A stretch of DNA of 64,000 nt from a virus (lineage: Duplodnaviria; Heunggongvirae; Uroviricota; Caudoviricetes), in the IMG/VR virus record IMGVR_UViG_2563366895_000001, positions 1 to 64,000 of that record. One strand, given 5' to 3'. The notes under the pieces were generated by a model that ran no database searches, had not been told where the DNA came from, and saw only the letters and a list, made by a program, of their open reading frames with translations. Position 1 is the first letter of the stretch, and each line of letters begins with the position of its first letter. Shown here one piece after another: positions 1,030-54,960 of this stretch. Made by a program: the position numbers and the translations under genes.

Positions 1030-1701
1030 TTAAAAGATGTTATCCTTACCTGTTAATTTACCTTGAGGAACTTTAGTGAGCTCCATCCGATAAAATGCTT
1101 TTATCATATTTACAAATGGCTCATATGGTGAATATTCGTTGTCTTGTTTAGTAACGGTGTCTGTCATTGTCCTGATGTAGTCTGCGCTTACCACGTTGTT
1201 GTATTCTGTTGCGAAGCAGCATAACAACGTCAGAACATGCTCTGTCGTTATTTCGCTCCAGTTGATGTTGAAAAACTCATCGCCTTTTTTATCGTGTTCG
1301 GAATCGAAGATGCTTTGGTGGAGGATGTATTTGCCGGATTCCTTGCGCGGTAACTTGATCGCTTTCTGGCGTTCCAACTCCTTGTAAATCTGCATTGCTT
1401 CAATTAGTACCGGCCTGCCGTTCATGAAGGGATCGCGCAACCTTACACGCTGGCCAACTCGACCGGTAATAAAGCTGTTTTCCTCTTCCACCAGCACGAT
1501 AAAACCCTTTTCCTCTTTTTCTCGCAATTCGCGCAGCAGCTGGAGTTCCATATCGCGGCGGCGTTCAGGGTAGCTGGTCCGCTCAGCCATTATCAGCTCG
1601 TTGTTGATCCATGCAGCAGTCATTGACGCCGGTTTGCCGACGCTCATCGAAACAACGCATATTTTCTTATCCATAGCGCCCCTACAAAAAAGAAAAGCCA
1701 C
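1030..1701 (-). CDS. Hypothetical protein (start uncertain; ATG at 1674 would give 214 aa)
   Basis: 223-aa ORF in six-frame track; no motif recognised by eye. Confidence 0.45.
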   Translation of the reverse strand: MAFLFCRGAMDKKICVVSMSVGKPASMTAAWINNELIMAERTSYPERRRDMELQLLRELREKEEKGFIVLVEEENSFITGRVGQRVRLRDPFMNGRPVLIEAMQIYKELERQKAIKLPRKESGKYILHQSIFDSEHDKKGDEFFNINWSEITTEHVLTLLCCFATEYNNVVSADYIRTMTDTVTKQDNEYSPYEPFVNMIKAFYRMELTKVPQGKLTGKDNIF

Positions 1702-1956
1702 CAGCGGCGGCTTAGCAATACAACTGAAGGTAGCGCCCGGTACTCAGACTGTGCCGTCCATGGAATATTTGAAAAGGGATCCATCCGTACCGGGCTTGAT
1801 GTGATTTTGGCAGAAGTAATTTGTCAGATGTCAATTTTTTTATCTGTAAAAATGCTATAAACCAATATTTCTATTATTTTTTATATGGTTGCAGTAGTAG
1901 AGTCTGGGCTATTCCTGCGTCCGGTCTTGATGACCACAAATCACGGAGATTGATTA

Positions 1957-2511
1957 ATGAAAAATCGTAGTTTCAACATCATCGCTTCTATTGCTATGGC
2001 TCTAATGTTAACAGGGTGTAACCAGTCAGAGATTGATAAACTCTCACTTATCGGTGAAGACAAGAGTTATCTTGAAGAACAGGACGAAGCCACTTTTGAA
2101 AAACGGACTCCAGACATAGAACTTTTTGCATTATACGATAAATCGTCACCTGACGCTCAGGAACCACATACCACAGGAATGTTGATTAATGGCAAGGTTG
2201 AGTTGAGCATGACAACAAAAGTTGGCAAATATACCTTTATGCAATTAGATGAAATGCTTACAAAAGAGTATGGGAAACCTGTTGCGACGAAGGACCATAT
2301 CTTTGATAAGGCTGCAATCTCTGGTTTGGACTGCATTGAAACTAAAACCTGTGGTGCTGGTAAGTATTATGAAGTATTCCGAGGAAAGGATCGGTTTGTA
2401 TTATTGATTAATGGAGCTGGTTATTTGTACGAAAAAGAAGGGGTTGCATTGCTTACTATCACGGACAAACAATTAAAAGTTGCTCGTCTGGAAGAGGACA
2501 AAAAACATTAA
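1957..2511 (+). CDS. Lipoprotein
   Basis: N-terminus MKNRSFNIIASIAMALMLTGC is a signal peptide with L-x-G-C lipobox; 184 aa. Confidence 0.6.
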   Translation: MKNRSFNIIASIAMALMLTGCNQSEIDKLSLIGEDKSYLEEQDEATFEKRTPDIELFALYDKSSPDAQEPHTTGMLINGKVELSMTTKVGKYTFMQLDEMLTKEYGKPVATKDHIFDKAAISGLDCIETKTCGAGKYYEVFRGKDRFVLLINGAGYLYEKEGVALLTITDKQLKVARLEEDKKH

Positions 2512-2518
2512 CAAACAG

Positions 2519-2534
2519 GGGCATACGCGCCCCA
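2519..2534. terminator. GC hairpin between convergent genes (possible bidirectional terminator)
   Basis: ggggcatacgcgcccc followed by A/T-rich tract, between the + lipoprotein gene and - ref. Confidence 0.3.
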
Positions 2535-2557
2535 ATATTTTAAAAATAATAAATATA

Positions 2558-3118
2558 TTAGTGCATGATATTTGCCATCTCATAGGCGTCAGCCAGCAAC
2601 TCCATCTCTGACTTGTTCAGCAGGGTGAATTCTTTCTTGCCTCCAACCACACCATCGGCATGAACAGGGACCAGCCAGGGGTATTTTTCTCTTACTTCAG
2701 CCGGTGCTGCATGCTGGTGGTGCCATCTACAAAGGGGCAATTGCTTTTTGTGACAACCCGGCGCGGTACGACCGGAGATATGGTGCAGAGACACCTCTTC
2801 AGATATTACTCCATGCATGTAGCAGGCAATGCAGGGGAGAGTGCCAAGAGCATTGGCGATGGTCCGTTCCTCCGCCGTCGGTGTTCGCCCCTTCAAGCCA
2901 CGAGATTTTATTTTTACCGCACTTTTCCGCGTTTTGCTGGCTGGTGGGCGCTCTTTCTGTTTAGCGATACGGCGGTCGATAGAATCCCGCATTTTCTGAT
3001 ATTGCGATTCTCGCCAGGCGGGGTCAGCCAACTTTTCCCGTTGCCGAGCGATCGCTCGTTCTCTGGCTGCCTTCTGCCACTCGCGGCGCTGTTCAAGTTT
3101 TTGTTCGATTGTTTTCAT
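2558..3118 (-). CDS. ref: Ref recombination-enhancement function, HNH-family endonuclease
   Basis: Begins MKTIEQKLEQRREW at the internal ATG (3118) of the 221-aa track ORF, giving 186 aa; cysteine/histidine-rich C-terminus (CIACYMHG...HHISGR...CRWHH); position downstream of cre as in P1; the upstream ATG at 3223 lies upstream of the promoter/operator. Confidence 0.8.
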   Translation of the reverse strand: MKTIEQKLEQRREWQKAARERAIARQREKLADPAWRESQYQKMRDSIDRRIAKQKERPPASKTRKSAVKIKSRGLKGRTPTAEERTIANALGTLPCIACYMHGVISEEVSLHHISGRTAPGCHKKQLPLCRWHHQHAAPAEVREKYPWLVPVHADGVVGGKKEFTLLNKSEMELLADAYEMANIMH

Positions 3119-3123
3119 ATGGC

Positions 3124-3149
3124 AAAAAAAAGGCGGCCTAATGGCCGCC
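3124..3149 (-). terminator. Intrinsic terminator-like hairpin plus T8 run in the ref leader
   Basis: Minus strand reads GGCGGCCATTAGGCCGCC followed by TTTTTTTT, ending 5 nt before the ref ATG; lies between the putative ref promoter/operator and the start codon. Confidence 0.4.
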
Positions 3150-8129: not shown

Positions 8130-8313
8130 AATGGCAGCCTCCTTTGACTAAGTTAAGGAGCTACCGCGTGAGGTCTCAATCTCAATGGCGGTAGCACTGA
8201 CTGGGTTGAGACTACCGGCGTCAAAGGGAACCGGCCTGCCTTTCGGCAGCCCAGCCAGCACTACCATTGATTTCGGAGCTAAACGCTACGTATGGCTGTG
8301 CGATGGCATGACA

Positions 8314-8450
8314 CAAAAAAAGACGCTTTCGGCGTCTGTGTCGCCTTTGACATTATCCGGGGTCTCAATCCCGGCACCCGTTTTAATGAGGTGCCTGATA
8401 AGCATAAACCGAAAATGCCTCAAGGCGCAAGAGGTCAGGTTCAATGTAAC
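8314..8450 (-). ncRNA. c4-like antisense RNA region of the second immI-like module (approximate)
   Basis: Leader between the C1 operator (8469-8485) and the icd-like start; minus strand has hairpin CCGGGATTGAGACCCCGG, then terminator GACGCCGAAAGCGTC plus T7, then downstream complementary GTCTCAAC near the RBS. Confidence 0.35.
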
Positions 8451-45935: not shown

Positions 45936-47525
45936 ATGTCTCAATATTCAATTCAACAGTCATTAGGTAATGCATCCGGCGTCGCGGTTAGCCCGATCAA
46001 TGCCGATGCGACGTTATCTACCGGTGTTGCATTAAATAGCAGCTTGTGGGCTGGTATTGGCGTATTTGCGCGTGGCAAGCCGTTTACTGTTCTGGCGGTT
46101 ACTGAGTCCAATTACGAAGATGTTCTCGGCGAACCGCTGAAGCCGTCTTCCGGCTCACAGTTCGAACCAATTCGTCATGTGTACGAAGCTATTCAGCAAA
46201 CGTCTGGTTATGTTGTTCGTGCTGTTCCGGATGATGCGAAGTTCCCGATTATTATGTTCGATGAATCAGGCGAACCAGCTTACAGTGCGTTGCCATACGG
46301 TTCTGAAATTGAACTTGATAGCGGCGAAGCCTTTGCTATCTACGTTGATGATGGTGATCCGTGTATTTCACCTACCCGTGAGTTAACCATCGAAACGGCA
46401 ACAGCGGACAGCGCAGGTAATGAACGCTTCCTCTTAAAACTGACCCAGACGACTTCGCTCGGTGTGGTAACGACCCTGGAGACACACACTGTGTCTTTGG
46501 CGGAAGAAGCGAAAGATGACATGGGCCGCTTGTGTTATCTGCCTACGGCTCTGGAAGCCCGTTCTAAATATCTGCGCGCGGTTGTTAATGAAGAGCTGAT
46601 TTCGACCGCGAAAGTAACAAATAAAAAATCACTGGCGTTCACTGGCGGTACCAACGGCGATCAGTCGAAAATCTCCACCGAAGCCTACCTGCGTGCGGTT
46701 AAGGTGCTGAACAATGCGCCGTACATGTACACCGCTGTTCTCGGCCTGGGTTGCTATGACAATGCGGCGATCACCGCGTTAGGTAATATCTGTTCTGATC
46801 GCCTGATTGATGGCTTCTTTGATGTCAAACCGACATTGACGTATACGGAAGCGCTCTCTGCTGTTGAAGATACCGGTTTACTTGGTACCGATTATGTAAG
46901 CTGTGCTGTCTATCACTTCCCGTTCTCCTGCAAAGACAAATGGACCCAATCCCGTGTGGTCTTCGGTCTGTCTGGCGCGGCGTATGCGGCGAAAGCTCGT
47001 GGCGTCAAGAAAAACTCTGATGTCGGCGGTTGGCATTACTCACCGGCTGGTGAAGAACGTGCCGTCATTGCTCGTGCGTCAATTCAACCGCTGTATCCGG
47101 AAGATACCCCGGACGAAGAAGCAATGGTCAAGGGCCGTCTCAATAAAGTATCTGTTGGCACCTCTGGCCAGATGATCATCGACGATGCTTTAACTTGCTG
47201 CACGCAGGATAACTATCTGCACTTCCAGCACGTCCCATCCCTGATGAATGCAATCAGCCGTTTCTTTGTCCAGTTAGCCCGACAGATGAAGCATAGCCCG
47301 GACGGTATTACTGCGGCTGGCCTGACTAAAGGGATGACCAAACTTTTAGATCGCTTTGTCGCCTCCGGCGCTCTGGTGGCTCCTCGTGATCCTGATGCTG
47401 ACGGTACAGAACCGTATGTGCTGAAAGTTACGCAGGCGGAATTCGATAAATGGGAAGTAGTCTGGGCCTGCTGCCCGACTGGCGTAGCCCGTCGTATCCA
47501 GGGCGTACCGCTGCTTATTAAGTAA
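45936..47525 (+). CDS. Putative contractile tail sheath protein
   Basis: 529-aa ORF following the capsid gene. Confidence 0.55.
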   Translation: MSQYSIQQSLGNASGVAVSPINADATLSTGVALNSSLWAGIGVFARGKPFTVLAVTESNYEDVLGEPLKPSSGSQFEPIRHVYEAIQQTSGYVVRAVPDDAKFPIIMFDESGEPAYSALPYGSEIELDSGEAFAIYVDDGDPCISPTRELTIETATADSAGNERFLLKLTQTTSLGVVTTLETHTVSLAEEAKDDMGRLCYLPTALEARSKYLRAVVNEELISTAKVTNKKSLAFTGGTNGDQSKISTEAYLRAVKVLNNAPYMYTAVLGLGCYDNAAITALGNICSDRLIDGFFDVKPTLTYTEALSAVEDTGLLGTDYVSCAVYHFPFSCKDKWTQSRVVFGLSGAAYAAKARGVKKNSDVGGWHYSPAGEERAVIARASIQPLYPEDTPDEEAMVKGRLNKVSVGTSGQMIIDDALTCCTQDNYLHFQHVPSLMNAISRFFVQLARQMKHSPDGITAAGLTKGMTKLLDRFVASGALVAPRDPDADGTEPYVLKVTQAEFDKWEVVWACCPTGVARRIQGVPLLIK

Positions 47526-47534
47526 GGGAATACA

Positions 47535-48350
47535 ATGAGCAAAAACTTTTTTCAATCCGGGGCATTTTTGGGGAATGGACTGTCTCGTTTCGCTTTGAAC
47601 TCTGATCCTGTGCAGTTGATGGAGTCTGCCCGAGCAAGCGCCGAACCGCCAACAGATCCGGTTATTAATAATAATCCGGAACCGGCGGCACAGACTAACG
47701 ATAACGTTCCATCTGATCCGGCTCCTGAGCAAATCCTGGAAGAGAAAGACGGTAAAGAATGGACCGTTGAACAGGCGCACCAGATGATTCTGGAAGCTGC
47801 AAATCGAAGTGCTATGCAAAATGCGTTGAGTGATGCGGCCGACGCCGTTTTCGCCTGGGCTGATAGCGGTGATCTGACTTTCGACTCCCTTGATGGTTTC
47901 GTTCAGGCTATCGCTGGTATCTCTGATGACGACGACTCCGAAGTTACAGAAGAACAGGACGATGCCTATAACGAAGCATGGGCAAATGTTGCTGACTTCC
48001 TCGCAGCATGCGGTGTAGATGATGACCTGATCGAAGCACTGGCTGACGATGAAGACGACGACGCAGCTGCTGATGTTGGTGCCTCTATCGCTGGTTTAGA
48101 TAGCGACGACCGTGATGAACTGGAAGCGGCGTTTGTTGTTGCTGGCACTTCTGATGAAATGCTGACTGAAGCATTTAAGAAGGTTGTTCGTAACGGTGAG
48201 ATCAAACTCATCCGTAAACGCCTGCGTAAAAAACGTCTGACTGCGGCTCAAAAATCGGCGCTGAAAAAAGCGCGTCGAAAAGCCCAGACCGGCGCGGCAA
48301 AACTTGCCCGCAAAAAGTCAATGAAACTGCGCCGTAAGCGCCTTGGCTAA
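47535..48350 (+). CDS. Acidic protein with strongly basic C-terminal tail
   Basis: 271 aa; D/E-rich body (DDEDDDAAADVGASIAGLDSDDRDELEAAF) and C-terminus RKRLRKKRLTAAQKSALKKARRKAQTGAAKLARKKSMKLRRKRLG. Confidence 0.5.
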   Translation: MSKNFFQSGAFLGNGLSRFALNSDPVQLMESARASAEPPTDPVINNNPEPAAQTNDNVPSDPAPEQILEEKDGKEWTVEQAHQMILEAANRSAMQNALSDAADAVFAWADSGDLTFDSLDGFVQAIAGISDDDDSEVTEEQDDAYNEAWANVADFLAACGVDDDLIEALADDEDDDAAADVGASIAGLDSDDRDELEAAFVVAGTSDEMLTEAFKKVVRNGEIKLIRKRLRKKRLTAAQKSALKKARRKAQTGAAKLARKKSMKLRRKRLG

Positions 48351-48385
48351 AGGAGGAGGCCGGAGAACTCCGGCCTTTAACTTGA

Positions 48386-48967
48386 ATGGCACCTATACCT
48401 TATGGGGTTTACAGCCAGGCTGACGGTGTATCGCCATTTCTGAAAGTTACTTTAACGAACTCTCAGTATCAGGTTACCGGATATATCAGCCAGGGGGCAG
48501 CAATGAACATGGCCCAGAATTGGGAAGCGCCGTTTACCGGTATGTCCATGGGGTCTGTTGCTGGTGCTTTCAGTGGTTTTGCGCAGGTTGGTACTGAAAC
48601 AACGTCGGTGGCCCGTTGGAACAGCTTAATGGTTTGGGAAGGGGGAACACCGCCGACTTTCACGCTGCCAGTAACTTTCATCGCTTTGTTTGACCCATTC
48701 ACGGAGGTTTCAGGAGCTATCGCCGCATTGTCAGCGATGATTAGCCCGGAACTTAAAGATGCCAGTATTGGTGGTCGAATCCCGGAGCGTGTGACGCTAA
48801 ACATTGGTCGCCGGATCAACATCATTGATGTCGCTATCCAGGACATAAGTTTCGATCTCGATGCGCCCAGGGACAGCAATGGGCATTTCCTGAAAAACAC
48901 CGTCAACCTCCAGTTGACCGGTTCTTCGATATATAACAGCTCCGATATTGTTCGGGCGTTCCAGTAA
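48386..48967 (+). CDS. Putative tail protein (tube candidate)
   Basis: 193-aa ORF in the sheath operon. Confidence 0.4.
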   Translation: MAPIPYGVYSQADGVSPFLKVTLTNSQYQVTGYISQGAAMNMAQNWEAPFTGMSMGSVAGAFSGFAQVGTETTSVARWNSLMVWEGGTPPTFTLPVTFIALFDPFTEVSGAIAALSAMISPELKDASIGGRIPERVTLNIGRRINIIDVAIQDISFDLDAPRDSNGHFLKNTVNLQLTGSSIYNSSDIVRAFQ

Positions 48968-48978
48968 AAGGATTTTAT

Positions 48979-49488
48979 ATGGGGCACAATAACACTAAGG
49001 GAAACCGTAAATTTATTAAGGGCCGCTATACTGCCAACGCGGCCAAAGGCGAACGACTGGTATCTTCTGAATTCCAGCTCACTTTTGCAGGCTATGAAGA
49101 TATCAGTGTACTTGTTCGTACGTCGCAAATCCCTGAAATGACTCGCGAGGATGTGGAGGACTATGGTCCGAATGGTGTGAAGTTCAACCAGCACGGACCA
49201 ATTCGAAACTCTGGGGAAATCCAGGTCCAGTGCGTGGAGACTATCGAAGGCGATATTCTTCAGTTCATCAAGGATCGCATTGCGGCGAAGGACTATGTTG
49301 ATATCACGATGGCTGCTACCCCTGAATCCAAATCTTCCGGGGTTAACGCTGTGACAAAAGCTGCTACAACAATTGAAATGTTGGACTGCAAAATCTACAG
49401 TGATGCAATCGACTTTAGTACCGAAGATGTGACTGCCGCTGTGCGCCCGTCACTTCGTATCGTCTACAACTGGATTGAGTGGGATTAA
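48979..49488 (+). CDS. Putative tail protein
   Basis: 169-aa ORF followed by a terminator. Confidence 0.4.
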   Translation: MGHNNTKGNRKFIKGRYTANAAKGERLVSSEFQLTFAGYEDISVLVRTSQIPEMTREDVEDYGPNGVKFNQHGPIRNSGEIQVQCVETIEGDILQFIKDRIAAKDYVDITMAATPESKSSGVNAVTKAATTIEMLDCKIYSDAIDFSTEDVTAAVRPSLRIVYNWIEWD

Positions 49489-49507
49489 GAGTCATCCCTT
49501 GTATTTT

Positions 49508-49531
49508 AAAGCTCCTTCGGGAGCTTTTTTA
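49508..49531 (+). terminator. Rho-independent terminator
   Basis: aaagctcc-ttcg-ggagcttt followed by tttt. Confidence 0.6.
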
Positions 49532-49582
49532 TTTGGAGAGGAAAGGGTGCATTGAGGATACCTGACACACGAAGAGTGGCGG

Positions 49583-49592
49583 GGATCTCTCC
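49583..49592. repeat. Target-site duplication (left copy) of the IS186-like element
   Basis: GGATCTCTCC, repeated at 50932-50941. Confidence 0.7.
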
Positions 49593-50931
49593 CATAAGCG
49601 CTAACTTAAGGGTTGTGGTATTACGCCTGATATGATTTAACGTGCCGATGAATTACTCTCACGATAACTGGTCAGCAATTCTGGCCCATATTGGTAAGCC
49701 CGAAGAACTGGATACTTCGGCACGTAATGCCGGGGCTCTAACCCGCCGCCGCGAAATTCGTGATGCTGCAACTCTGCTACGTCTGGGGCTGGCTTACGGC
49801 CCCGGGGGGATGTCATTACGTGAAGTCACTGCATGGGCTCAGCTCCATGACGTTGCAACATTATCTGACGTGGCTCTCCTGAAGCGGCTGCGGAATGCCG
49901 CCGACTGGTTTGGCATACTTGCCGCACAAACACTTGCTGTACGCGCCGCAGTTACGGGTTGTACAAGCGGAAAGAGATTGCGTCTTGTCGATGGAACAGC
50001 AATCAGTGCGCCCGGGGGCGGCAGCGCTGAATGGCGACTACATATGGGATATGATCCTCATACCTGTCAGTTCACTGATTTTGAGCTAACCGACAGCAGA
50101 GACGCTGAACGGCTGGACCGATTTGCGCAAACGGCAGACGAGATACGCATTGCTGACCGGGGATTCGGTTCGCGTCCCGAATGTATCCGCTCACTTGCTT
50201 TTGGAGAAGCTGATTATATCGTCCGGGTTCACTGGCGAGGATTGCGCTGGTTAACTGCAGAAGGAATGCGCTTTGACATGATGGGTTTTCTGCGCGGGCT
50301 GGATTGCGGTAAGAACGGTGAAACCACTGTAATGATAGGCAATTCAGGTAATAAAAAAGCCGGAGCTCCCTTTCCGGCACGTCTCATTGCCGTATCACTT
50401 CCTCCCGAAAAAGCATTAATCAGTAAAACCCGACTGCTCAGCGAGAATCGTCGAAAAGGACGAGTAGTTCAGGCGGAAACGCTGGAAGCAGCGGGCCATT
50501 TGCTATTGCTAACATCATTACCGGAAGATGAATATTCAGCAGAGCAAGTGGCTGATTGTTACCGTCTGCGATGGCAAATTGAACTGGCTTTTAAGCGGCT
50601 CAAAAGTTTGCTGCACCTGGATGCTTTGCGTGCAAAGGAACCTGAACTCGCGAAAGCGTGGATATTTGCTAATCTACTCGCCGCATTTTTAATTGACGAC
50701 ATAATCCAGCCATCGCTGGATTTCCCCCCCAGAAGTGCTGGATCCGAAAAGAAGAACTAACTCGTTGTGGAGAATAACAAAAATGGTCATCTGGAGCTTA
50801 CAGGTGGCCATTCGTGGGACAGTATCCCTGACAGCCTACAAAACGCAATTGAAGAACGCGAGGCATCGTCTTAACGAGGCACCGAGGCGTCGCATTCTTC
50901 AGATGGTTCAACCCTTAAGTTAGCGCTTATG
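49593..50931 (+). mobile_element. IS186-like insertion sequence (IS4 family), 1339 bp
   Basis: 23-bp terminal inverted repeats CATAAGCGCTAACTTAAGGGTTG at both ends, single transposase ORF, 10-bp direct repeats, inserted into a G4-N6-C4 palindrome (typical IS186 target). Confidence 0.85.
49642..50760 (+). CDS. IS4-family DDE transposase
   Basis: 372 aa with C-terminal YRLRWQIELAFKRLKS motif. Confidence 0.85.
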   Translation: MPMNYSHDNWSAILAHIGKPEELDTSARNAGALTRRREIRDAATLLRLGLAYGPGGMSLREVTAWAQLHDVATLSDVALLKRLRNAADWFGILAAQTLAVRAAVTGCTSGKRLRLVDGTAISAPGGGSAEWRLHMGYDPHTCQFTDFELTDSRDAERLDRFAQTADEIRIADRGFGSRPECIRSLAFGEADYIVRVHWRGLRWLTAEGMRFDMMGFLRGLDCGKNGETTVMIGNSGNKKAGAPFPARLIAVSLPPEKALISKTRLLSENRRKGRVVQAETLEAAGHLLLLTSLPEDEYSAEQVADCYRLRWQIELAFKRLKSLLHLDALRAKEPELAKAWIFANLLAAFLIDDIIQPSLDFPPRSAGSEKKN

Positions 50932-50941
50932 GGATCTCTCC
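50932..50941. repeat. Target-site duplication (right copy)
   Basis: GGATCTCTCC. Confidence 0.7.
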
Positions 50942-50953
50942 CCGCCAGGTCTC

Positions 50954-51109
50954 TTACCTTTCAGATTCGTAGGCTGTGAAGACAGTGACCTCCGTCTGGC
51001 CGGTTCGGATTCGTACCTCGCAGAGGTCTTTCCTCGTTACCAGTGCCGTCACAATGACGGTTAAACAGATGACGATCAGAGCGATTAACATCGCTTTTTG
51101 CTGCTTCAT
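50954..51109 (-). CDS. hok: Hok/Gef-family type I toxin
   Basis: 51-aa ORF translated codon by codon: MKQQKAMLIALIVICLTVIVTALVTRKDLCEVRIRTGQTEVTVFTAYESER, close to E. coli HokD/RelF and HokC; AAGGAG RBS; below track cut-off. Confidence 0.85.
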   Translation of the reverse strand: MKQQKAMLIALIVICLTVIVTALVTRKDLCEVRIRTGQTEVTVFTAYESER

Positions 51110-51167
51110 AGCCTGCTTCTCCTTGACCTTTTGGTCGGTAAGAGGCTAATCTACGTATGCTAAGCAT
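50961..51167 (-). CDS. mok: Mok (modulation of killing) reading frame overlapping hok
   Basis: 68-aa track ORF overlapping hok in another frame and ending near the hok stop. Confidence 0.6.
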   Translation of the reverse strand: MLSIRRLASYRPKGQGEAGYEAAKSDVNRSDRHLFNRHCDGTGNEERPLRGTNPNRPDGGHCLHSLRI

Positions 51168-51230
51168 AGATATGGCCTCAGATTAATGTTAAGCGTCTTG
51201 CAGGACGCGTAATGTTATCTGGGGCTTTCT
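51159..51230 (+). ncRNA. sok: Sok-like antisense RNA (approximate)
   Basis: Plus-strand TTGACC, 18 bp, TAATCT promoter at 51123-51152 firing antisense across the mok start/RBS; 3' end not pinned down. Confidence 0.35.
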
Positions 51231-51290
51231 TCTATCTGCTTTTCGGGTAATGCCTGAAGCAGATAGCCTCAAGCACCCGCAACGATTGTA

Positions 51291-51617
51291 TCAATGTCTG
51301 GCTTTTTTTCTATAGAAATCACCTGGAAGGGTGAATATCCACATCAAAAGAAATGTTGCAGCAAACATGATCCCTAATGGCCAGACCGCGCCAAAGAAAA
51401 TCCATACTAAGATCTCCTCTGTTCGTTCTTTGCGGTCGATATCGACAAGCATTTTTCGGCTGATCATGTATACACAGAAGCCAATACAAACATATCCTGC
51501 AAAAGAGATCGCTAACTGTAAAAAATCAGATTGCATCTCCGACCTCAAACTGAAAACGCCAGGTGACTCCAGATTAGAGCAATTTATCACCCTCTGAATC
51601 CTGCCGGTATACCCCAT
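51291..51617 (-). CDS. Small membrane protein
   Basis: 108 aa with three hydrophobic segments. Confidence 0.4.
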   Translation of the reverse strand: MGYTGRIQRVINCSNLESPGVFSLRSEMQSDFLQLAISFAGYVCIGFCVYMISRKMLVDIDRKERTEEILVWIFFGAVWPLGIMFAATFLLMWIFTLPGDFYRKKARH

Positions 51618-52432
51618 TGTTCGTTATCTTTATTTTTGGCTAAAACCGCATTAAGAGCTTCGTTTACCGTCATGCAATGCGGCAGATTATCGAAGTTTGA
51701 TATCCCGCCAATATCAGGAGAACGCTTGTCCTTCAGGTAAGCATATTTCCGCGCTGCCGCCTCTACTTTCTGCTTGAACTCATGTTTTTGAGCGCGTTTT
51801 TTGGATAACCGCAGATTGTCAGCCTTTGCTTTTGCCTCAGCGATCCATGAAGTCAATTTTTTGAGTCTGGTCGTTCCGGCACCGCCGGAAACTGATCTTT
51901 TTGTTTTTTTAACTTGTGACTTCTTATTCTTTATTGCCACGTCATCCTGACAGGGGGAGGGGGTATCATTTTGACATGGGGGTGTGGATAAAAAATTAAA
52001 TAAAGCCAATGTCTTAGCGAGAACAGCTTTAACCTTGGTTGCCGCTGAAGAGATCTTTAATTTGCTTTCAATCAGCGCATTTTTGGCTTGTTGTGCGAAG
52101 GCCAAAAAGGATGGTGTAAACCGGTACAGGTTAGCGCGACGTTCACGGTGATCGCCGATAACAATCTCTACAGACAGGATTCCTTTGTTTACAGCTTCAC
52201 GGAATGCACGAACGACGGTTGATTGGCTATAACCAGTTTCTGCCGCGATCAGGCGGTGAGGCTTGTGAATGAAGTATTCACTGGTTGTTGCCGCGAGATT
52301 TGCACATTGCGACAGGATATGCCCGGCGCTACGGGATAGACCGGAGTGTGTTACAAAGCAGGCCAATTCATAGCCAGAAAAAGTAAAATCGCTCATCGTT
52401 ATACAGCTCAGGAAAGTGACTTTAGCCAGCAT
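51587..52432 (-). CDS. repL: RepL lytic replication initiator
   Basis: 281-aa ORF directly downstream of kilA, downstream of the Op53-type operator. Confidence 0.7.
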   Translation of the reverse strand: MLAKVTFLSCITMSDFTFSGYELACFVTHSGLSRSAGHILSQCANLAATTSEYFIHKPHRLIAAETGYSQSTVVRAFREAVNKGILSVEIVIGDHRERRANLYRFTPSFLAFAQQAKNALIESKLKISSAATKVKAVLAKTLALFNFLSTPPCQNDTPSPCQDDVAIKNKKSQVKKTKRSVSGGAGTTRLKKLTSWIAEAKAKADNLRLSKKRAQKHEFKQKVEAAARKYAYLKDKRSPDIGGISNFDNLPHCMTVNEALNAVLAKNKDNEQWGIPAGFRG

Positions 52433-52461
52433 TACAATGCTGGTGGTTCTTACTACGTCTG

Positions 52462-53262
52462 TTAGCGCGTTGCCGCGACAGGTACCAGCACACCAGCATC
52501 AAGCAATCGCTTCATCAGCCACTGCTGACCTTTGCCGGTTATACGAGTCGTGAAAGAAATCCTGCTTCCATTGCTTGTATCGATCACGGTTTCTTTAAGG
52601 GTGAAATACCCACGGGATATGTATTCTTGTTTGGGGACGTTCCTGCGTTCACCGGTTGCGATCAGAATTCCGTTATCACGCAACCAGGTGAAGAGATAGT
52701 TTTGGCCCAGGCCGAGCACTTTGGCATAGTTGCCGATTAGAACCCCGCTGGCGGTAGCAACGCGTTCGGCGAATTCGACTTTAGGTGCATCCATCAGCAT
52801 TTTTTGCTCCAGCCGTTGCTTTTGCTCTGCCAGGTCGGCAGCCAAACGGAGAGCTTCTGGGAGGCTCTTCGGAATAGCAGGTTGTAATCTTCCAGCTCGA
52901 TAGTCGATAAATGTCTGGTTTACCTTCAGCCGAAACGCGGGAGAAATCCAACCAGCGTACTCCACTGCGAGCAATTCATGGGCAAAAGTGCCGCCGCCAC
53001 GGCCTTCGAACGAAACTATGCAATTCTGCATAGTTTCTTTTTCAAGCTCTTCGATGAGCTGTTTAGCTGACAGCGTTCTTAGCCATTGAGCTGGCGCTTT
53101 ATGGGCACCGAGTCCGCTCGCTCTGTGTAGAGCATTAAGGTTGTAACGGCCAGCGCGGTCGGTCGTAATTTCAACACCACAAATAACAGGCAGAGTGGTT
53201 GAAGGATCGACATTTTGATGAAGGTTTGATATATTCATATCCGCATTGAATGTTTGTTGCAT
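52462..53262 (-). CDS. kilA: KilA (KilA-N DNA-binding domain plus KilA-C domain)
   Basis: 266 aa; C-terminus shares the LIGNYAKVLGLGQN...GYFTLKE block with the Ant proteins. Confidence 0.7.
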   Translation of the reverse strand: MQQTFNADMNISNLHQNVDPSTTLPVICGVEITTDRAGRYNLNALHRASGLGAHKAPAQWLRTLSAKQLIEELEKETMQNCIVSFEGRGGGTFAHELLAVEYAGWISPAFRLKVNQTFIDYRAGRLQPAIPKSLPEALRLAADLAEQKQRLEQKMLMDAPKVEFAERVATASGVLIGNYAKVLGLGQNYLFTWLRDNGILIATGERRNVPKQEYISRGYFTLKETVIDTSNGSRISFTTRITGKGQQWLMKRLLDAGVLVPVAATR

Positions 53263-53332
53263 TTTTTCTCCAAATTTGCATCAACCTTCAATCACCAGCT
53301 CGAAATGGTGATTCTTTGCACTTAGAAAACGA

Positions 53333-53349
53333 AATTTATTAGAGCAAAT
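53333..53349 (-). promoter_or_regulatory. C1 operator upstream of kilA-repL (Op53-type)
   Basis: AAATTTATTAGAGCAAa, 16 of 17, between the ant stop and the kilA start. Confidence 0.65.
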
Positions 53350-53425
53350 TTTTCTGACTCGATCCAGATCGGGTTGGTCGATCTGCTCAGAAACCTGCCA
53401 GTTTGCTGGCAGGTTTTTTCTTTTG

Positions 53426-54463
53426 TTAACCTATTGCTACTGGTTTTAACAAACCAGCATCAAGTAGCTTGCGAGTTAACCACTGCTGGCCTTTACCCGT
53501 TAATTGGGGCGTCAGCCGTATCTGGTAGCCATTTTCATCATCCAGCACCACTTCTTTCACCGTGAAATACCCGGCGTTAATGTACTGCTGGCGCGGTACG
53601 TTTTTGCGCGCACCAAAAGCCATGAGAATGCCGTTCTGGCGCAACCATGAGAAAAGGGCGTTTTGCTTAAGTCCAACGACCTTTGCAAAGTTCCCGATCA
53701 GGATTGCATTAGCCGCTGATACCCGGTCGGCAAAATCGACTTTAGGGGCTGCGGCCACCAGCTGTTGTTCCAACTGCATTTTCTGTTCTGCCAACTCGGC
53801 AGCCAGGCGTAGAGCGTCTGGTAATGTTTGGGGGATCGATGGCGCAGGGGAGTTTGCCTGCTGCAATTCTTCCAGTTTGTCGATCAGCGAACGGCGGACT
53901 GCTTTTGACTCGCGCGCGGCGACTCGCAGGGCTTGTTTGAAAGTCATGGTTATGACAAGCATTGATGTTTTGTTCATTTTTTCCACTACACTTTTTGTGT
54001 AGTGCTCACCATCAAGCTCATCGAGTATTTTTTCGATGAATTTGTTGTTCCGAACCTCTGGTTCCCTACATAACTTACGCGCTTCATTGACCATCTTTAA
54101 CAGTGTCAGGCTGTCGATTGTGTCTCCGGTGTTGGGGATGATATTCACGGCTGGTGCTGGCGTAGCTGAAGCAACAGGTGCTGGTTTTTCAACATTCAAA
54201 TTATTACCGGTCATTCTGCGCGCCTCCTTTCTCATTTCTGCTGCCACTGTTGCGTAACGTAGACGTCCTTGTTCAATCAAATAATCCCTGATCTCGGCTA
54301 TCAGTAGCCTGTTGATCACAGCCTTATCTGTTCGGGTATAAAAACGTCTGGTTATCATGAAATAGTTGGCAATTGCGCCGGGGATCTCCCGTGTCGGCAT
54401 ACAGGTTGTATGCAAAGCGATCGCTTTGGCTATTTCATTACGGGTGACGAGAGGTTTTTTCAT
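53426..54463 (-). CDS. ant: Ant antirepressor (immI)
   Basis: 345-aa ORF whose start overlaps the icd stop; KilA-C type C-terminus. Confidence 0.75.
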   Translation of the reverse strand: MKKPLVTRNEIAKAIALHTTCMPTREIPGAIANYFMITRRFYTRTDKAVINRLLIAEIRDYLIEQGRLRYATVAAEMRKEARRMTGNNLNVEKPAPVASATPAPAVNIIPNTGDTIDSLTLLKMVNEARKLCREPEVRNNKFIEKILDELDGEHYTKSVVEKMNKTSMLVITMTFKQALRVAARESKAVRRSLIDKLEELQQANSPAPSIPQTLPDALRLAAELAEQKMQLEQQLVAAAPKVDFADRVSAANAILIGNFAKVVGLKQNALFSWLRQNGILMAFGARKNVPRQQYINAGYFTVKEVVLDDENGYQIRLTPQLTGKGQQWLTRKLLDAGLLKPVAIG

Positions 54464-54699: not shown

Positions 54700-54960
54700 A
54701 GGTTTAACAACCTGCTACCCGCTGCTAAACAGGTGGCAGGACGTGACGGGGTTAGCAGACTGGCGATTGTGAAACCAGCAGGCCGAAGCCTCCCCATCCC
54801 GCCCCACCATAATTTGGGCGTAACGCGGTTTTACGGACACAAAAATACCGCAATATCGGATATCTGCGGCTGTCCGCACAATCATTCAGGCTGCTAAACC
54901 CGGTCGCAGAATTTGCTACGACGGCGAAACTATAAGCCTGAACGATTAAAAGGTCAATAT
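54700..54960 (-). ncRNA. c4: c4-type antisense RNA and its target sites in the immI leader (approximate)
   Basis: Between the Op51-type operator and icd; minus strand has GGGTTTAGCAGCC, then complementary GTCTGCTAAC, then a second TTTAGCAG next to the icd RBS. Confidence 0.4.

Follow-up and report, generated by a model that had tools for sequence, protein, structure and literature searches.

In the hok/sok (parB) locus of plasmid R1, a stem between the 5' tac sequence and the 3' fold-back inhibition (fbi) element keeps the full-length hok mRNA untranslatable and unable to bind Sok RNA, and slow 3' processing strips fbi and sets off refolding (PMC9841398). Both the processed (Tr-hok) mRNA and toxicity are lost in R1 when a single substitution disrupts a C-G pair of the terminal stem (PMC9841398). 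In Escherichia coli K-12, the insertion sequence (IS) IS186 at gef/hokC has been proposed to interfere with fbi and with processing (PMC3562002), and K-12 hok loci are classed as IS-inactivated (PMC7232551, citing Pedersen and Gerdes 1999). The locus described here is a hok/mok/sok type I toxin-antitoxin cassette of hokD type, carried as cargo on a P1-like phage-plasmid (IMG/VR record IMGVR_UViG_2563366895_000001, positions 1 to 64,000, hereafter the window). A copy of IS186 lies in the loop of the GC-rich hairpin that follows hok, and parts the toxin gene from the 3' arm of that hairpin and from fbi. By analogy with R1, transposition of IS186 into this terminal stem-loop has probably abolished or much reduced post-segregational killing by the cassette.

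A hokD-type cassette split by IS186

Upstream of the IS the cassette is intact, with the hok promoter, tac, Sok target, mok, hok and sok all in place (Table 1). The initial annotation had proposed a 51-aa Hok/Gef toxin, and the open reading frame (ORF) indeed aligns with the whole 42-position profile of Pfam HOK_GEF (PF01848), scoring 78.7 bits where the cutoff is 22. The overlapping mok frame proposed with it is likewise present, and is annotated as a coding sequence in phage vB_EcoM-Ro157c2YLVW. The hok mRNA leader matches the full Rfam model RF01794 at 114.9 bits, about twice the gathering score of 59. The TG-extended hok promoter places +1 at ~51278, the exact start of the RF01794 match with GGGUGCUUGAGG. 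The sok promoter, which had been called plausible, can be placed by alignment to annotated K-12 sokC; a consensus promoter scan of the plus strand did not report it, its score falling below threshold. Sok would thus lie antisense to the leader around the mok start, a position taken from homology, with a promoter that is a weak consensus match. The Sok RNA is predicted to fold (-35.6 kcal/mol, z -6.1) into a long stem-loop, preceded by a 5' tail and followed by a U-rich 3' terminus. The span first assigned to the locus, 49583-51230, has to be widened, as the promoter and mRNA 5' end reach 51278-51312 and fbi lies at 49545-49557.

The element itself had been described as IS186-like with 23-bp terminal inverted repeats and a 10-bp duplication, and it is 99.85% identical to K-12 IS186A. 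The inverted repeats CATAAGCGCTAACTTAAGGGTTG are perfect (49593-49615 and 50909-50931), and 10-bp direct repeats GGATCTCTCC border the element at 49583-49592 and 50932-50941. The transposase gene (from GTG at 49642 in the ORF list) runs toward the hok 3' end, and its product is identical to K-12 InsL1 at 369/370 residues; judged by sequence, the copy is active-looking. The IS begins 22 nt past the hok stop (a 12-nt spacer and the 10-nt duplication), rather than 10 bp past it as stated at first. In-silico removal of the IS and one repeat copy regains the empty site TGGCGGGGATCTCTCCCCGCCA, which reads TGGCGGGG-ATCTCT-CCCCGCCA. The reconstructed site (121 bp) has an exact match in phage vB_EcoM-Ro157c2YLVW and differs at one position from that of pSA186_4, so that the insertion inside a palindrome is confirmed both in the sequence and by relatives that have the site without the IS.

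With the IS removed, the hok strand after the stop reads GAGACC-UGGCGGGG-AGAGAU-CCCCGCCA, followed 22 nt on by CCUCAAUGCACCC, the fbi element. The terminal hairpin reconstructed in this way folds at -21.1 kcal/mol. In the window as it stands the stem is destroyed on the hok side, where a 4-bp remnant alone is left (GGGG/CCCA, using the first two IS bases), and the stem-loop that would protect the processed mRNA is absent, its 3' arm having been displaced by the IS in the loop. Removal of the 3' arm of the terminal stem, in addition to fbi, had been missed in the initial annotation. The fbi element now lies 1,349 bp (1.35 kb) farther from the rest of the hok mRNA. In the reconstructed mRNA tac (nt 1-12, GGGUGCUUGAGG) pairs with nt 373-385 (49545-49557) in a 12-bp helix with one bulge, which is present in the minimum-energy fold and has an ensemble probability of 1.00. 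In a hybrid hok::IS186 transcript of 507 nt the predicted probability of distal pairing is 0.12, with the 5' end taking up the local fold of the truncated form. Closure between tac and fbi is therefore found only after in-silico removal of the IS.

Conservation of these elements was followed in 47 related hok loci from Escherichia, Shigella, Kluyvera, Citrobacter, Photorhabdus, Pantoea and Erwinia, 30 of them distinct full loci. All 30 retain the tac-fbi helix, with 11-12 of its 12 pairs intact. Compensatory substitution is seen at position 4, which is U-A in 17 loci and C-G in 11, and at positions 11 and 12, where G-C gives way to A-U; when the partner columns are slid as a control, pairing drops from 99% of cells to 47-63%. 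The terminal hairpin is paired in 98.6% of cells across loci and is kept from Escherichia to Photorhabdus and Erwinia. Homology with chromosomal hokC and hokD cassettes crosses the insertion point and ends at 49544/49545, just past fbi. Not all hok regulatory elements, therefore, lie upstream of the IS, and the proposal that the IS cuts the coding region off from fbi is upheld by alignment, by the reconstructed fold and by conservation. The terminator-like hairpin at 49508-49536, read on the minus strand, follows immediately after fbi and is likely the end of the original full-length hok transcript.

Within the hok frame, the Tyr47 codon lies in UACGAA (50966-50971, minus strand), which is invariant in 30/30 aligned hok loci. 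A-to-I editing by TadA (Tyr to Cys) at the corresponding hokC, hokD and hokE codon has been reported in a recent preprint, and by analogy the codon of the window hok may be edited too.

Table 1. Positions in the window of the hok cassette, the IS186 copy and other mapped sites
Feature	Position	Strand	Basis
Terminator hairpin and T-run downstream of tail-tube gene	49508-49536	.	Terminator-like site in scan; hairpin in fold of 425-nt reconstruction
Displaced fbi element CCUCAAUGCACCC	49545-49557	-	tac pairing, conservation, end of homology
Displaced 3' arm of terminal hairpin (CCCCGCCA, RNA strand) and left duplication copy (49583-49592)	49577-49592	-	Sequence
IS186 (IS4 family, IS421 group), 1,339 bp	49593-50931	+	Inverted repeats, duplication, identity to K-12 IS186A
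IS186 transposase gene, intact, 370 aa from ATG	49648-50760	+	ORF; DDE_Tnp_1, 93.7 bits
Weak hairpin and U-run within IS, hok strand	50771-50813	-	Fold, -9.5 kcal/mol, z -1.5
Right duplication copy (50932-50941) and hairpin 5' arm (UGGCGGGG, RNA strand, 50940-50947), hok-attached	50932-50947	-	Sequence
hok toxin gene, 51 aa, HokD-type	50954-51109	-	ORF; annotated hokD in identical plasmids
mok frame, 68 aa, overlapping hok	50961-51167	-	ORF; colinear with annotated K-12 mokC
hok mRNA 5' leader (tac 51267-51278, Sok target, mok ribosome-binding site)	51104-51278	-	Rfam RF01794
sok antisense RNA gene: TTGACC (51123-28), 18 nt, TAATCT (51147-52); putative transcript ~51159 to ~51238	51123-51238	+	Alignment to annotated K-12 sokC
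hok promoter: TAGAAA, 16 nt, TG-TACAAT (TG-extended)	51285-51312	-	Promoter scan; aligns with K-12 hokC promoter region
C4-type RNA regions (C4, isrK-like, c4 a1/b1 target)	8184-8271, 8316-8394, 54729-54814, 54883-54935	-	Rfam

The hok hairpin as an IS186 target

IS186 has a highly specific target, 5'-GGGG(N6/N7)CCCC-3', which is used in either orientation, and one GGGG(N6)CCCC site was struck 16 times in mutation-accumulation lines (PMC5009759). The DNA of the hairpin after hok is GGGG-ATCTCT-CCCC. The window site fits the published motif exactly, has the 10-bp duplication and is occupied in both orientations among relatives. IS186 landed in the hok hairpin because the DNA of that hairpin is the sequence that the element prefers, and the recurrence of IS186 beside hok genes can be given the same concrete cause, namely that a conserved RNA hairpin doubles as the canonical DNA motif of the transposon.

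Occupancy of the site was counted in 5,426 complete E. coli genomes, as raw records with shared ancestry included. The P1 flank is joined to the IS186 left end, the orientation of the window (A), in 175 records, and to the IS186 right end, the reverse orientation (B) with the same 10-bp duplication, in 32. A short probe finds either orientation in 219 records, and the P1-like hok site is empty in 201-213. About half of the P1-like hok copies are thus occupied by IS186. The presence of both orientations at one plasmid site indicates at least two independent insertions. An origin of the IS in faulty assembly or chimeric joining has next to no probability, as the inverted repeats are perfect and the duplication is present, the identical junction and its reverse recur across those 175 and 32 complete records, and the insertion has already been described in pSvP1 (PMC6906374). 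With all loci pooled, a 300-bp probe that covers the junction of the IS right end with the 3' end of hok matches 857 records at >= 80% coverage, and the mirror probe (fbi side and IS left end) also matches K-12 and B derivatives at the hokC position.

Three further records or groups of records bear on individual copies. In plasmid p1506-1 (NZ_CP059289.1, 3001-3100), IS1 adjoins a 35-bp remnant of the IS186 left end, which itself abuts the P1 flank and duplication, and the hok cassette has been lost; IS1 apparently came second, in a plasmid once occupied by IS186. In p276M-CTX-M-55 (1237-3134, reverse orientation) two genes are annotated as pseudogenes, that of the IS186 transposase with a frameshift and the tail-tube 'baseplate' gene with an internal stop; these lesions may be sequencing errors or decay. 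Tiny contigs of Acinetobacter idrijaensis (275 bp) and Xanthomonas pisi (431 bp) hold a P1-type or hokD-type cassette with up to 100% protein identity, most likely as contamination.

The empty and occupied sites differ in their hairpin alleles. Among the empty P1-like sites in IMG/VR (n=33), 6 have the perfect stem, while GGGG is replaced by GAGG in 18, by GGAG in 6 and by AGGG in 3; the occupied sites there have GGGG in 5/5. In an evenly spaced E. coli sample GGGG is intact in 34/34 occupied sites, 2 of which have mismatches elsewhere, whereas the empty sites divide into 8 perfect and 17 with one mismatch; 4 of the 17 were read, and 4/4 carry an allele of GAGG, GGAG or AGGG type. In Fisher tests that ignore kinship, hairpin allele is associated with occupancy at p=4e-9 in the E. 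coli sample and at 9e-4 in IMG/VR. Within the allele set the perfect stem takes the central place, each variant being one step from it and two steps from the other variants. Each variant (equivalents of window 49577-49584) is a single G-to-A change in the DNA, or C-to-U on the hok RNA strand, which turns a G-C pair into G·U at a cost of 2-3 kcal/mol and breaks the GGGG motif of IS186. The mirror change in the other arm, which would cost 7 kcal/mol, was not seen in this allele set.

This pattern is consistent with an RNA hairpin that is still under selection and a DNA target motif for IS186 that has been lost. The variants could be either alleles selected for immunity to IS186 or leftovers after IS186 took the susceptible copies. 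A broader and more tentative reading, rather doubtful at present, is that the hok hairpin serves as an IS186 landing pad in a tug-of-war, in which IS186 holds nearly all perfect-stem P1-like loci, most uninterrupted survivors owe their state to one of three independent G-to-A changes, and G·U pairs are selected or sieved as transposon immunity. Selection might also act in the opposite sense, if silencing of hok benefited the phage-plasmid through lower cost or the absence of lytic interference, so that IS186-bearing lineages spread beyond what a hot spot would give. The occupation of about half of the loci and the existence of derivatives in which hok is wholly gone beside an IS186 remnant would suit such an advantage. 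It is nonetheless an unlikely explanation of the high occupancy, since target preference alone can account for the pattern, as the site struck 16 times illustrates (PMC5009759), the occupancy counts include shared ancestry, and the confinement of empty-site variation to the arm that keeps an RNA G·U pair, with none in the other arm, speaks for selection for a working hok locus. A natural experiment on the role of fbi and the terminal stem outside R1 is available in the three classes of site, occupied, empty with a perfect stem and empty with a wobble pair, which also bear on whether single-base changes shield the site from IS186.

Probable consequences for the hok mRNA

Transcription from the hok promoter would now enter IS186 and terminate there. 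The resulting hybrid mRNA should be unable to form the tac-fbi closure, which makes full-length hok mRNA inert and long-lived, and should also be without the terminal stem that protects the processed, translatable form. With neither closure nor stem, the hybrid 5' end should adopt the fold of the open, processed form, to which Sok would bind directly, and a stable reservoir would not be built up. It is the presumed loss of this mRNA reservoir, which post-segregational killing needs, that would leave the locus crippled for killing, although low, Sok-controlled hok expression may persist.

The 3' end of the hybrid mRNA is uncertain because the hairpin with U-run on the hok strand at 50771-50813 is weak and the stronger terminator-like site, the sole in-IS site from the consensus scan, lies at 50378-50359, 576 nt past the hok stop. 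The former (about 140-180 nt after the stop) is the candidate 3' end from folding; the K-12 gef mRNA ends ~200 nt into IS186 (PMC3562002). A stretch of IS186 that could substitute for fbi was also considered. GCCUCGGUGCC, 12 nt long and ~45 nt into the IS, pairs with tac at -17.9 kcal/mol against -21.0 for native fbi, but was judged a chance match because GCCUCGGUGCC goes unused in the predicted ensemble and is surpassed by an unrelated site 1.1 kb farther along (-18.8). Folding of a 644-nt hybrid transcript, the length quoted for gef, pairs the 5' end with the extreme 3' end, a result that depends on an arbitrary cut-off and was set aside.

Several points weigh against a loss of killing through the insertion. 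K-12 gef, where IS186 lies in the orientation seen in the window, reportedly remains transcribed and under antisense control (PMC3562002), and given this case 'inactive' may denote an altered locus and not a silent one. Post-segregational killing is reportedly not mediated by hokA and hokC on the chromosome, even when intact (preprint 10.1101/2025.08.07.668861), and by extension the cassette might have had little killing activity even before the IS arrived. The predicted accessibility of the mok ribosome-binding site is the same in the full-length, truncated and hybrid folds, and structure predictions for RNAs of 400-500 nt are unreliable.

The gef report, the hairpin and U-run inside the IS and the tac-pairing stretch near its right end could be combined into an alternative in which the insertion is neutral or merely rewires the locus, structure within the IS stabilising the hybrid mRNA and IS sequence replacing fbi so that hok/sok still works. 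This appears distinctly improbable. Pairing by the pseudo-fbi does not exceed what chance matches elsewhere in the IS achieve (the strongest of them far downstream), distal pairing falls from the certainty of native closure to a small fraction of the ensemble, and the IS hairpin has a z-score of only -1.5. Single base changes in the R1 terminal stem suffice to abolish function (PMC9841398), and Pedersen and Gerdes, as cited in PMC7232551, class the IS-bearing K-12 loci as inactivated.

The failure of intact hokA and hokC, taken together with a HokD-type toxin and 88-92% identity of the cassette to chromosomal and prophage hokD loci, could alternatively mean that the cassette was a non-functional relic of chromosomal type before the IS came, in which case the insertion would be of no consequence. 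This too is unlikely, given that every regulatory element is present and conserved with compensatory changes, that the asymmetric hairpin substitutions point to purifying selection on RNA structure, and that HokD peptides are toxic where tested elsewhere. The preferred and likely reading remains a cassette crippled for killing by transposition of IS186 into its terminal stem-loop. Transcription of the transposase gene, which converges on hok, could add antisense read-through, a speculative effect. The phage late genes should be unaffected by the IS because it lies downstream of the tail-tube terminator.

Such a locus enters genome annotation and peptide-based surveys of Hok as an intact 'HokD toxin'. 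Because IS186 splits the regulatory RNA in about half of P1-like copies in complete E. coli genomes, the number of 'functional' hok systems credited to phage-plasmids is probably inflated.

Phage-plasmid context and comparison with described hok loci

Over 40476-64000 the window is 100% identical to the E. coli plasmid pWL164-2 (NZ_CP128644.1), whose annotation of the hok region lists only an 'IS4-like element IS421 family transposase' followed by 'hokD'. Positions 47000-54000 are 97-99% identical to P1, P7, RCS47, SJ46 and other Punavirus records outside a 1.3-kb block, the IS. Canonical P1 and P7 leave a further stretch of this probe unmatched and cover ~70% of it. The backbone genes around the hok locus are colinear with P1, which identifies the window as a P1-like phage-plasmid (Punavirus). 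The cassette lies with the tail-tube gene (48979-49488, plus strand) on one side and repL on the other; a 281-aa ORF (51587-52432, minus strand) is RepL by name in P1 records, with KilA next. Directly upstream of the hok promoter is a 108-aa ORF (51291-51617, minus strand) that looks small and hydrophobic; an 81-aa hypothetical protein is annotated inside it in identical plasmids, and it accompanies the hok cassette across P1-like plasmids. A Pfam search assigned no family to Mok, to the 108-aa ORF or to the 281-aa ORF, and a tRNA scan of the window returned zero genes. Rfam places two C4 antisense RNA genes in the window, with an isrK-like RNA beside the first and a c4 a1/b1 target beside the second, so that two C4-type immunity RNA regions stand on one plasmid, ~46 kb apart.

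An insertion of this kind has been described once in a P1-like plasmid. In pSvP1, Venturini et al. (2019, PMC6906374) reported IS186B with the same repeat GGATCTCTCC, next to an 'antibacterial toxin' and with no mention of hok, and named the IS as the cause of the missing rlfA, rlfB and pmgF. Relatives with an empty site carry the hok cassette in place of P1 rlfA, rlfB and pmgF without the IS. Since the substitution is already seen in these relatives, the IS is unlikely to have caused the replacement in P1-like plasmids, and the literature stands to be corrected on this point.

The toxin is 96% identical in protein to that of chromosomal and prophage hokD loci of E. coli (relF in the K-12 Qin prophage), whose cassette DNA is 88-92% identical over ~350 nt, up to the fbi boundary. 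The K-12 relF copy matches only the first 192/399 bases of the cassette probe (the hok end), leaving the promoter-proximal part unmatched. In contrast to the window, the sampled chromosomal hokD copies have a G·U in the terminal stem and no IS186.

The arrangement itself is that of the IS-disrupted K-12 loci hokC::IS186A and hokE::IS186B, with an IS near, and outside, the toxin ORF that cuts off the 3' elements, and the initial suggestion of a recurrent target is borne out by the homologous hairpin loop used in each. In K-12 hokC (gef)/mokC/sokC::IS186A the IS sits in the homologous hairpin loop in the same orientation, with its right end abutting hok, makes a 10-bp duplication, begins 22 nt past the stop (measured on a K-12-like hokC locus) and strands fbi (CAACGCACCC in hokC) beyond it, and the leader, promoter and sok are colinear with those of the window. 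The K-12 locus differs in being chromosomal, beside nhaA, rather than on a phage-plasmid, and in encoding a toxin of HokC type, whose nearest relatives are 80-82% identical in protein to the HokD-type toxin of the window. Its duplication on the hok strand is GGAGTGATCC, against GGAGAGATCC in the window, and the Sok stem-loop region of the window is 18 nt longer. In K-12 hokE/sokE::IS186B the IS again lies in the post-stop hairpin loop (GCGGGG-AGTAAT-CC...), about 18-22 nt after the stop, but in the opposite orientation, which matches the 32 orientation-B P1-like plasmids, and the toxin sequence is distant. The window and K-12 IS copies are >99.8% identical, whereas the flanks, aligned together with a near-identical P1-like copy as third sequence, have 83% mean column identity. 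Because the flanks are far more diverged than the IS copies and the duplications differ, the window, hokC and hokE insertions can be taken as separate events.

Plasmid R1 hok/sok, by its published description, shares with the window the 5' tac, a mok frame overlapping hok, a leader-antisense Sok and a GC-rich terminal stem followed by fbi (PMC9841398); unlike the window locus it is uninterrupted, and its post-segregational killing has been shown experimentally. A recent Hok census mentions neither IS186 nor fbi. Already known, then, are the presence of IS186 beside hok in K-12, where according to the 1999 work as cited it cuts the 3' control elements, the IS186 target motif (PMC5009759) and, since 2019, the insertion in one P1-like plasmid. 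To these are added the finding, from gene content and homology, that the 'antibacterial toxin' of P1-like plasmids belongs to a complete hok/mok/sok cassette of hokD type, the splitting of its terminal stem and fbi by the IS at the position homologous to that in K-12, with the hairpin tied to the IS186 motif, and the scale of occupancy, about half of the copies and in both orientations, together with the wobble-allele pattern.

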